Assembly (NCBI GenBank): GCA_903862845.1
Contig: CAIOZS010000103.1
Location: forward strand, 6,187-70,186
DNA length: 64,000 nucleotides
DNA from: an uncultured Thermoleophilia bacterium
GTDB taxonomy: Bacteria > Actinomycetota > Thermoleophilia > UBA2241
Reading direction: 5' to 3'
Positions 52,111 through 53,154 of the stretch are shown here, one piece after another. How positions within the stretch are numbered: position 1 is the stretch's first letter; the number at the start of each line of letters is the position of its first letter. The position numbers were made by a program, and so were the translations under genes. Below the pieces are notes generated by a model. It saw only the letters and a list, made by a program, of their open reading frames with translations. It did not search any database and was not told where the DNA came from.

Positions 52111-53154
52111 GTGGGCGCCACGTACGTATACGGAATCATCTCGACCGACCGGCGCGTGAGCCTGCCCGGCGCCGGAGTTTCGGCGCATCCGGGCGGCATC
52201 CACGCCGTGCCGCACGACGGCATCGCGGCCGTCGTGGGCCCCAGCGATCTGGACGACTACCAGGGCCTCGGGCGCGAAGAGCTCGTGAAGGTGCTCCTTG
52301 AGCACCAGCGGGTCGTAGAAGAGGTGATGTCCGCCTTCCCCGTCCTGCCCGCCAAGTTCGGCACGGTCCTGGCCGATGAGGCGCGCGTCACCGACTTGCT
52401 CACCCGCGGCCACGACCTCTTGCGCGGTGAGCTGGATCGTCTGGCGGCCTGCGTGCAGATGGAGGTCGTCGTGCAGTGGGACCTCGAGCAGGTGTTCGCC
52501 GAGCTGGGCCGCGACGCGCGGATCGCGGAGGTGCGCGCCGCCGCCGCTGCTGCTCCGGCGGCGGACGCCGAGGCCATGCGAATCCTGCTCGGCCAAACCG
52601 TGCAGACGCTGCTCGAAGAACGCCGGGCGGCGCTGAGGGAGCGTCTGCTGCCTCGCCTGCAGGAGGCGGGCCGGGAAGTGCACGCCAACCCCTGCATGGA
52701 CGACAAGATGATCCTCAACCTGGCGCTGCTCGTCGACGAAGCGGGCCGTCTGCGGCTCGACGCCCTGCTGCCGGAGCTCGACGCCGAGCTCGAGGGCAGC
52801 CTCGACTTTCGCTGCGTGGGCCCTCTGCCGCCGTACACCTTCGCCACGCTGGAGGTCGAGTCGCCGAGCTTCGCCGACACCGAGCGTGCGCGGGGCTTGT
52901 TGAGCCTGCCCGCGGAGGTCACCGGCAGGCAGGTCAAAGAAGCCTTCCGCCGCCTGGCGAGCCGGCTGCATCCCGACGTGAACCCGGACGCGGCGGGCAG
53001 TGAGAAGGCGATGGCCGAGCTCGCGTGGGCCTACAAGCTGCTGAGCCGCTTCGTGGACTCGGCCGGCGAGGGGGATCCTGCGCGGCCCTGTCGGCTCGAC
53101 CGGCCTTCGGTAGAGCAGGCGCTCCTGTTCGACGTGCGCCGTCAGGAAGCCTGA
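52111..53154 (+). CDS. GvpF/GvpL-family protein fused to a C-terminal J-domain (HPD motif)
   Basis: N-terminal YVYGII...IHAVPHDGIAAVVGP..., FRCVGPLPPYTF. C-terminal VKEAFRRLASRLHPDVNPDAAGSEKAMAELAWAYKLLS matches the J-domain consensus (KAYRKLA..YHPD.N.). Confidence 0.75.
   Translation: MGATYVYGIISTDRRVSLPGAGVSAHPGGIHAVPHDGIAAVVGPSDLDDYQGLGREELVKVLLEHQRVVEEVMSAFPVLPAKFGTVLADEARVTDLLTRGHDLLRGELDRLAACVQMEVVVQWDLEQVFAELGRDARIAEVRAAAAAAPAADAEAMRILLGQTVQTLLEERRAALRERLLPRLQEAGREVHANPCMDDKMILNLALLVDEAGRLRLDALLPELDAELEGSLDFRCVGPLPPYTFATLEVESPSFADTERARGLLSLPAEVTGRQVKEAFRRLASRLHPDVNPDAAGSEKAMAELAWAYKLLSRFVDSAGEGDPARPCRLDRPSVEQALLFDVRRQEA

Follow-up and report, generated by a model that had tools for sequence, protein, structure and literature searches.

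We analysed a stretch of 64,000 nucleotides from an uncultured Thermoleophilia bacterium (assembly GCA_903862845.1, contig CAIOZS010000103.1, positions 6,187 to 70,186 of the forward strand), in the following called the window. It carries a gas vesicle gene cluster in which gvp genes A, N, H-like, F-like, G, O, J-like, K and L-like are found on the same strand between positions 41188 and 56922. Within this cluster, one gene at 52111-53154 encodes a protein in which a GvpF/L core is joined to a C-terminal J-domain. Such a fusion had been proposed for this gene in an earlier note made from the DNA letters and their translations, and its identity, its conservation and its likely role in gas vesicle biogenesis are described here. 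The features of the window are compiled in Table 1.

The window has a G+C content of about 69% with long open reading frames (ORFs) in every frame, and the likely coding genes were picked by ranking the ORFs via the G+C content of their third codon positions. The ORF at 52111-53154 showed fractions of 0.88 at third (GC3) and 0.45 at second positions (GC2), as found for the other real genes of the window. ORFs on the opposite strand or in other frames, for example one of 471 residues on the minus strand (51556-52971), were rejected as high-GC shadows; strong Pfam matches occurred in the plus frame only. The GTG start codon is preceded, at a distance of 8 nt, by the Shine-Dalgarno-like sequence GAAGGAGG, the first base of which doubles as the final stop codon base of the CDC48-like gene located upstream (position 52096), hence both genes are tightly packed. 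The N-terminus MGATYVYGII of the encoded protein agrees with the N-termini of its homologues in an alignment of 35 sequences.

The GvpF/L core represents a third paralogue

The two motifs considered in the earlier note as hallmarks of GvpF/L proteins, YVYGII and GPLPPYTF, were both found, at residues 5-10 and 237-244, and the sequence RLHPD is present as well. The Pfam profile GvpL_GvpF (PF06386) matched with 188.8 bits (E = 2e-55; gathering threshold (GA) 23.6) over profile positions 2-244 of 245. A phmmer search of the Protein Data Bank (PDB) revealed, for the N-terminal part, the GvpF crystal structures 6l5d and 4qsg with E-values of about 1e-7. The fusion protein resembles the solved GvpF proteins of Microcystis (4QSG) and Anabaena (6L5D) in its N-terminal 245 residues, with a template modelling (TM) score of 0.82, and in its gvp cluster setting. 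The solved chains comprise 250 and 253 residues, whereas the fusion has about 100 additional C-terminal residues, which form the J-domain and a tail.

Besides the fusion gene, the cluster contains both a GvpF-like and a GvpL-like gene, neither of which encodes a J-domain (Table 1). The scores of the fusion stayed below the equivalog cut-offs of the NCBIfam models for both, namely 59.0 bits against 350 for GvpF (NF052351) and 84.1 bits against 200 for GvpL (NF045778). In a rough neighbour-joining tree of 233 GvpF/L cores from related loci, all 69 J-bearing cores fell within one clade of 76, and the other seven cores of this clade were truncated or had been overlooked by a simple filter for the HPD motif. 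On account of the low scores to the GvpF and GvpL models and the separate clade, the fusion is a third, distinct GvpF/L paralogue, which is marked by its J-domain and is neither a GvpF nor a GvpL equivalog.

The J-domain retains residues expected to contact Hsp70

J-domains dock with their HPD motif and helix II on ATP-bound Hsp70 and trigger ATP hydrolysis, upon which Hsp70 closes on the presented client. The Pfam profile DnaJ (PF00226) matched residues 263-312 of the fusion protein significantly, with 36.6 bits (E = 4.9e-9; GA 27.8; profile positions 5-54 of 63), and the C-terminal 83 residues alone gave 37.2 bits. About 19 J-domain entries of the PDB were matched by residues 260-315 (approximate limits) in a phmmer search, with the J-domain of DNAJA3/Tid1 as the best (3e-5). 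NCBIfam DnaJ models, PRK14278 and TIGR02349 being the closest, matched the same stretch with scores far below their full-length cut-offs, as expected for an isolated J-domain. The C-terminal location of the J-domain is therefore as originally proposed; its extent is not, as it had been described as the last about 70 residues but spans residues 253-318 (approximately) and is followed by a separate, conserved tail of 29 residues. The HPD tripeptide, reported before as intact, consists of H287, P288 and D289 and lies in the loop joining helices II and III.

The positively charged face of helix II carries R273, K276, R280 and R281. Conservation of the J-domain was determined for 74 readable loci, with positions assigned in Escherichia coli DnaJ numbering via our own alignment; the helix II residues considered are those that we take to contact Hsp70, as in the complex of DnaJ with DnaK. 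The HPD motif was invariant in these 74 loci and in all 35 aligned homologues. Tyrosine occupied the Y25 position in 71 loci, lysine or arginine the R22 position in 67, and arginine, lysine or histidine the K26 position in 63, while A53, L57 and L10 were kept in 66, 68 and 72 loci, respectively. In every readable locus, the HPD motif follows the GPLPPYSF motif at a distance of 42 (rarely 43) residues. This pattern of residue conservation points to purifying selection for a working J-domain.

A HMMER search of 1.84 billion representatives clustered at 50% identity gave 274 matches with E ≤ 1e-30. Among the best 150 of these, about 131 carry HPD, about 8 are truncated and about 10 have a degenerate triplet, so that HPD is kept in about 93% of the full-length representatives. 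The HPD-less members (P0129, P0144, P0163, P0183, P0187, P0198, P0215, P0218, P0222 and P0236) keep both the domain and the tail; judged by their sequences, these distant members are possible J-like derivatives.

The tail consists of a variable linker and the motif C-x-[FL]-[DS]-R-x-x-V-E-x-x-L-L-[IF]-x-[IV]-R-R-Q-E. Its Cys-x-[FL] element and the following hydrophobic strand are present even in the most distant phyla.

Structural models predict a J fold attached to the core

The full-length protein was modelled with AlphaFold2 (AF2) on the alignment of 35 sequences, and the isolated C-terminus (residues 250-347) on 17 sequences, both alignments being shallow. The full-length model reached a mean predicted local distance difference test (pLDDT) value of 92.4, with nothing below 50, and a predicted TM score (pTM) of 0.84. 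The GvpF/L domain is predicted as a two-lobed alpha/beta structure, as in the GvpF crystal structures, and Foldseek comparison with the PDB returned GvpF as the best matches (6l5d_B, E = 3.7e-14, TM score normalised to the target 0.82; 4qsg, E = 1.2e-13). Below the GvpF entries, the matches were almost exclusively J-domains, plus a few ferredoxin-fold structures of low probability.

The J fold anticipated in the earlier note is borne out by the model, which predicts helix I at residues 254-263, helix II at 272-286 and helix III at 297-318, with HPD in the loop between II and III. The J-domain of DnaJ in complex with DnaK (5nro_B) superimposed on the full-length model with a root-mean-square deviation (rmsd) of 2.2 Å over 59 columns and a TM score of 0.81. 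Modelled alone, the C-terminus reached a pLDDT of 83.7; its top 40 PDB matches were all J-domains, and 5nro_B superimposed with an rmsd of 1.1 Å over 53 columns. TM scores with this structure were 0.77-0.81 over both models.

Where a canonical fourth helix would be expected, the full-length model shows a short helix (residues 331-336) and a strand (339-343), whereas the same tail forms one long helix of lower confidence (fragment residues 82-97) when modelled alone. The high pTM together with this change of conformation in the absence of the core suggests that the tail packs onto the GvpF/L core in the predicted whole protein.

The fusion is widespread among bacterial phyla

A search of 5.8 billion proteins revealed 192 relatives of the fusion protein. 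The best 120 of these, taken from clusters of 90% identity, share 43-99% identity, nearly all carry precomputed matches to both PF00226 and PF06386, and they originate from metagenome-assembled genomes (MAGs) of Thermoleophilia, Chloroflexota, Anaerolineae and Ardenticatenaceae. Where public names are given, they read only "GvpL/GvpF family gas vesicle protein" or "hypothetical".

A scan with one genome per species yielded 409 related loci, of which the best 80 were used for all locus counts. The closest of them belong to Thermoleophilia MAGs (82-85% identity). Others were found in Anaerolineae, in Chloroflexia including the cultured Oscillochloris sp. ZM17-4, in Dehalococcoidia, Hyphomicrobiaceae/Xanthobacteraceae and Ignavibacteriales, and further ones in Nitrospirota, Nitrospinae, Omnitrophota, Verrucomicrobiota, Zixibacteria, Aerophobetes, Edwardsbacteria and Bacillota; Alphaproteobacteria are also credited with loci of this set. 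The fusion is thus conserved across many bacterial phyla, at least 10 of which have it in the HPD-bearing form. Gas vesicles are documented in the mesophilic Chloroflexales, the group that contains Oscillochloris (PMC7332563).

Neighbouring genes encode further putative chaperones

Immediately upstream of the fusion gene lies the gene of a double-ring AAA+ ATPase of the CDC48 family, which scored 927 bits with the NCBIfam model TIGR01243 (cut-off 802.65). Synteny was counted in phmmer searches with the window proteins as queries against stop-to-stop ORFs of the best 80 loci. Enough upstream sequence was available in 59 loci, and in 53 of these the fusion gene is preceded by a CDC48-like ORF that ends at a distance of at most 400 nt. 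Five of the six exceptions also retain such an ORF, which is adjacent in one (L047) and heads the cluster in four loci of the Dehalococcoidia type.

Upstream of the CDC48-like gene, two small proteins are encoded, each with six CXXCXGXG repeats of the DnaJ zinc-finger type; the DnaJ zinc finger itself has four. Of the 50 related loci that exceed 12 kb, 31 encode a DnaJ-type zinc-finger protein, and the fusion gene is usually accompanied by an Hsp20/GvpH gene. A single, broken DnaJ gene as the common origin of the J-domain and the zinc-finger proteins was rejected, as the CDC48 gene intervenes and the repeats number six, not four. BSD2-type proteins are small stand-alone DnaJ zinc-finger chaperones dedicated to the assembly of one large complex. 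The zinc-finger proteins of the window, with their six repeats, share the CXXCXGXG domain with these by Pfam only; by analogy, they may act as holdases of the stand-alone type.

In nine related gvp clusters, which stem from Dehalococcoidia, Nitrospirota, Aerophobetes and other groups, the last gvp genes are directly followed by a full-length Hsp70 gene of the same strand, which closes the cluster. The three Hsp70 proteins checked matched Pfam HSP70 (PF00012) with 667-746 bits, and neither a GrpE nor a DnaJ gene follows them, which argues that these are not ordinary dnaK operons located nearby by chance. The cluster Hsp70 sequences retain a ...V(I/L)RIINEPTAAALAYG... segment, presumably the DnaK stretch with R167, N170 and T173 that contacts the J-domain. 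No description of gas vesicle clusters with their own Hsp70 was found in the literature searched.

Table 1. Features of the gas vesicle cluster in the window, and Hsp70 genes of related clusters
Feature	Position	Strand	Remarks
GAF-PAS histidine kinase	37878-39893	+	
OmpR-type response regulator	40257-40979	+	upstream of gvpA
GvpA major shell protein, 74 aa	41188-41412	+	ORF translation; GvpA (PF00741) at same position in related loci
557-aa protein with 33-aa repeats	41547-43220	+	directly after gvpA
GvpN-type AAA_5 ATPase	44124-45266	+	Pfam AAA_5 73.4 bits; same position in related gvp clusters
Hsp20/alpha-crystallin-type GvpH-like protein	46040-46633	+	Pfam HSP20 30.7 bits, GvpH 24.8 bits
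M48-peptidase-like protein (weak), 344 aa	46649-47683	+	21 bits, around cut-off; recurs in related clusters
GvpF-like paralogue, no J-domain	47676-48446	+	Pfam GvpL_GvpF 232.7 bits; best NCBIfam match cyanobacterial GvpF, 149 bits
GvpG	48455-48712	+	Pfam GvpG 88.1 bits
GvpO (ORF)	48660-49058	+	Pfam GvpO 84.7 bits
Six-repeat CXXCXGXG protein, 131 aa	49106-49501	+	Pfam DnaJ_CXXCXGXG 35.1 bits, GA 32.7
Second six-repeat CXXCXGXG protein, 119 aa	49541-49900	+	Pfam DnaJ_CXXCXGXG 48.6 bits
CDC48-family double-ring AAA+ ATPase, 712 aa	49958-52096	+	Pfam CDC48_N, CDC48_2, 2x AAA, 2x AAA_lid_3
Shine-Dalgarno-like GAAGGAGG	52096-52103	+	read directly
GvpF/L-J fusion gene, complete	52111-53154	+	GTG start, TGA stop, 347-aa product
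GvpL_GvpF domain	52120-52845	+	residues 4-245; Pfam 188.8 bits
J-domain	52867-53064	+	residues ~253-318; Pfam DnaJ, AF2 helices, Foldseek matches
HPD tripeptide H287-P288-D289	52969-52977	+	Hsp70 ATPase-stimulating motif
Conserved C-terminal tail	53065-53151	+	residues 319-347; alignment, AF2 models
GvpA/J-like protein with C-terminal zinc ribbon (CxxC...CxxC)	53184-53582	+	Pfam Gas_vesicle match
GvpJ/M-like protein with PH/GRAM-like domains	~53590-54606	+	Pfam Gas_vesicle match
GvpK	54603-54926	+	Pfam GvpK 62.7 bits
387-aa protein	54923-56086	+	C-terminus weakly Hsp20-like, NCBIfam E 2e-4; recurs in related clusters
GvpL-like paralogue, no J-domain	55993-56922	+	Pfam GvpL_GvpF 218 bits; best NCBIfam match GvpL, 172 bits
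Cluster Hsp70 genes, examples	L079:7262-9025; L084:16051-17937; L057:17920-19866		
Hsp70-bearing related loci			L055, L056, L057, L067, L077, L078, L079, L083, L084

A probable J-domain co-chaperone dedicated to gas vesicle biogenesis

Taken together, the protein is likely a dedicated class-C J-domain co-chaperone for gas vesicle biogenesis, in which the GvpF/L core would serve as the client- or complex-binding module. By its domains it is neither a class A nor a class B DnaJ protein, as the J-domain alone is present. The core would bind its client, either a hydrophobic GvpA-family protein or an accessory complex, while the J-domain, with its HPD loop and basic helix II, would dock on DnaK/Hsp70 in the ATP-bound state and induce hydrolysis of the nucleotide. 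Upon this, Hsp70 would close on what the core holds, either a hydrophobic segment of the shell protein or the accessory complex. As the outcome, aggregation-prone GvpA-family proteins would be kept soluble and/or released for insertion into the growing shell, with GvpA as the presumed ultimate client. The CDC48-family unfoldase, the two zinc-finger proteins and Hsp20/GvpH probably belong to the same proteostasis module, contributing unfoldase/disaggregase and holdase activities. The proposed recruitment of Hsp70 is strengthened by the conserved signature residues of the J-domain, the nine cluster Hsp70 genes and the chaperone-rich module. While the domains, their fold, the conserved motifs, the single clade and the synteny are direct results of the analysis, the stimulation of Hsp70, the client and any joint action with CDC48 and the zinc-finger proteins are deduced from sequences, structural models and gene neighbourhoods.

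The earlier note had suggested that the J-domain directs Hsp70 activity to nascent vesicles; GvpA-family proteins or an accessory complex bound to GvpF/L are the more defensible targets. Among the haloarchaeal proteins, GvpA interacts with GvpF only, and all other accessory Gvp proteins are drawn to GvpL (PMC7688916). For Bacillus megaterium, the binding of GvpF to GvpA2 is transient, and GvpF was suggested to act as a chaperone of GvpA2 (PMC11445434).

Several observations weigh against the assignment as a co-chaperone. A six-frame scan of the 64-kb window for three Hsp70 signature motifs found none, and the partner in this organism is therefore assumed to be a housekeeping DnaK encoded elsewhere; in some lineages, the cluster-encoded Hsp70 would take this place. 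We know of no precedent in J-domain biology for the strict adjacency to a CDC48 gene. The Foldseek E-values for the short J-domain were modest, the best ranging from 3e-3 to 6e-3. Furthermore, packing of the J-domain against the core is suggested by the high pTM of the model and by its confidently predicted C-terminal strand. About 10 of about 141 full-length representatives have a degenerate triplet (HPA, QPD, RPD or none), so the domain can persist without canonical stimulation of Hsp70, and it may also serve a structural role. Finally, gas vesicles of Thermoleophilia are presumed structures.

Among the alternative explanations, uncoating or recycling survives best, albeit as an unlikely one. 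Rather than holding and delivering a client, the J-domain and Hsp70, possibly with the CDC48-like unfoldase, would dismantle a nucleation complex or strip GvpF/L from GvpA, in analogy to auxilin and Hsc70 acting on clathrin coats or to Hsp70 acting with an AAA+ disaggregase. The CDC48-family ATPase encoded directly upstream (stop at 52096, Shine-Dalgarno-like sequence at 52096-52103, start at 52111), with its adjacency in 53 of 59 loci, is consistent with such a function, as is the transient nature of the interaction of GvpF with GvpA2 in B. megaterium, which is displaced by GvpG (PMC11445434). However, the same parts serve delivery and release, which nothing in the data separates, and CDC48-family proteins are not known as targets of J-domains.

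It is less probable still, and in our opinion quite improbable, that the C-terminal domain is a structural, J-like module comparable to Pam16, which stabilises the paralogue or mediates contacts between Gvp proteins and for which Hsp70 is irrelevant. The roughly 10 representatives that lack HPD and still retain domain and tail would fit this explanation, as would the pTM of 0.84, which implies that the J-domain is held on the core in a fixed position, and the dependence of the tail conformation on the presence of the core. This is opposed by the occurrence of HPD in all 74 loci, which represent no fewer than 10 phyla, and in about 93% of the full-length representatives, by the retention of the basic and aromatic helix II positions that contact Hsp70, and by the recruitment of Hsp70 genes to nine related clusters. 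An artefact, in which a frameshift, a misassembly or a gene-calling error merged gvpF/L with the gene of a small J-protein, is extremely improbable and effectively refuted already. No point in its support was found, the same single ORF with HPD 42-43 residues past GPLPPYSF recurs in assemblies that were made independently in many studies and cover many phyla, neither a stop codon nor a frame change interrupts 52111-53154, and all segments of the AF2 model are predicted with confidence, none having a pLDDT below 50; the GvpF/L-J fusion is real and not an assembly accident.

Beyond the co-chaperone function, one can speculate, although we consider it doubtful, that the cluster encodes a complete ATP-driven assembly machine. 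The J-tagged GvpF/L adaptor would couple Hsp70 to the CDC48-family unfoldase, and the zinc-finger proteins and Hsp20/GvpH would act as holdases. GvpA-family subunits would be unfolded, held and then actively inserted into the growing shell by this machine, a so far unrecognised Hsp70-CDC48 bichaperone system specialised in the construction of a gas-filled protein organelle. If true, this could explain the failure of many gvp clusters in heterologous hosts.

Comparison with known J-domain proteins

HscB (Hsc20) is a specialised J-protein encoded in the isc operon, which delivers IscU to the dedicated Hsp70 HscA. As in HscB, the J-domain of the fusion is joined to a pathway-specific client module and encoded in the operon of its pathway, and nine related clusters have a dedicated Hsp70. 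Unlike HscB, the fusion carries its J-domain at the C-terminus rather than the N-terminus, the GvpF/L core takes the place of the C-terminal helical bundle, there is no sequence relation beyond the J-domain, and no dedicated Hsp70 is encoded in the window. By analogy, the fusion would work most like specialised class-C J-proteins such as HscB.

Class A DnaJ proteins are related insofar as the J-domain of the fusion is closest to bacterial DnaJ models and the cluster encodes DnaJ-type zinc fingers. These parts are, however, located on separate polypeptides, and the fusion itself lacks a G/F region, a zinc finger and the C-terminal domains of DnaJ. Two further J-proteins act on large structures, namely TopJ of Mycoplasma in the assembly of the terminal organelle and auxilin/GAK in the uncoating of clathrin. 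Both resemble the fusion in that a J-domain is tethered to a structure-targeting module and brings Hsp70 to an assembly or disassembly process, but their targeting domains are unrelated, and with 25 bits against the cut-off of 300 for the TopJ model the similarity is an analogy and not membership.

Novelty and implications

The sequences and their Pfam matches were already public; apparently new is the view of the fusion as a gas vesicle J-domain co-chaperone with a module of CDC48, zinc-finger and Hsp20 proteins and sometimes Hsp70. No paper connecting a Gvp protein with a J-domain or Hsp70 was found among the literature within reach, which did not include subscription-only papers, so that an earlier mention is possible. 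The main text of a survey of about 280,000 J-domain proteins contains no mention of Gvp proteins (PMC10410713). With the fusion, the known class-C J-domain proteins of bacteria would gain a branch devoted to organelle assembly.

How the extremely hydrophobic GvpA stays soluble and enters the growing vesicle is an open question, and a chaperone role of GvpF was only hypothesised (PMC11445434). A conserved J-bearing GvpF/L paralogue provides independent evolutionary evidence for this idea and names DnaK/Hsp70 as the candidate energy-consuming partner. Many gvp clusters fail to assemble gas vesicles in E. coli, and the chaperone capacity of the host is suspected as a cause (PMC12848028). Clusters of the fusion type may need a matching Hsp70, a CDC48-like ATPase and zinc-finger proteins, which could guide the engineering of acoustic reporter genes.

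Further genes of the cluster

The gene order of the cluster is kept in genomes of Thermoleophilia and Ardenticatenaceae. A histidine kinase and a response regulator are encoded directly upstream of gvpA, which suggests two-component control of the cluster; the response regulator holds the same position in a related Thermoleophilia locus (L001). A scan for promoters and terminators from 40900 to 58000 found no promoter-like sites and fewer terminator-like sites than in shuffled sequences, and was uninformative on operon structure.

Directly downstream of the fusion gene, the two proteins with Pfam Gas_vesicle matches (53184-53582 and ~53590-54606) scored 59.4 and 48.9 bits, respectively. The latter contains two domains with weak similarity to PH/GRAM/Vps36 (Pfam E = 5e-5 to 1e-3), and proteins of this type recur in related loci. 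The 557-residue protein encoded after gvpA contains 3.8 copies of a 99-nt (33-residue) repeat as well as a higher-order repeat of 252 nt, followed by a spacer rich in proline, glutamate and lysine and a helix-hairpin-helix end. The period of 33 residues recalls cyanobacterial GvpC, although the protein gave no Pfam GvpC match.

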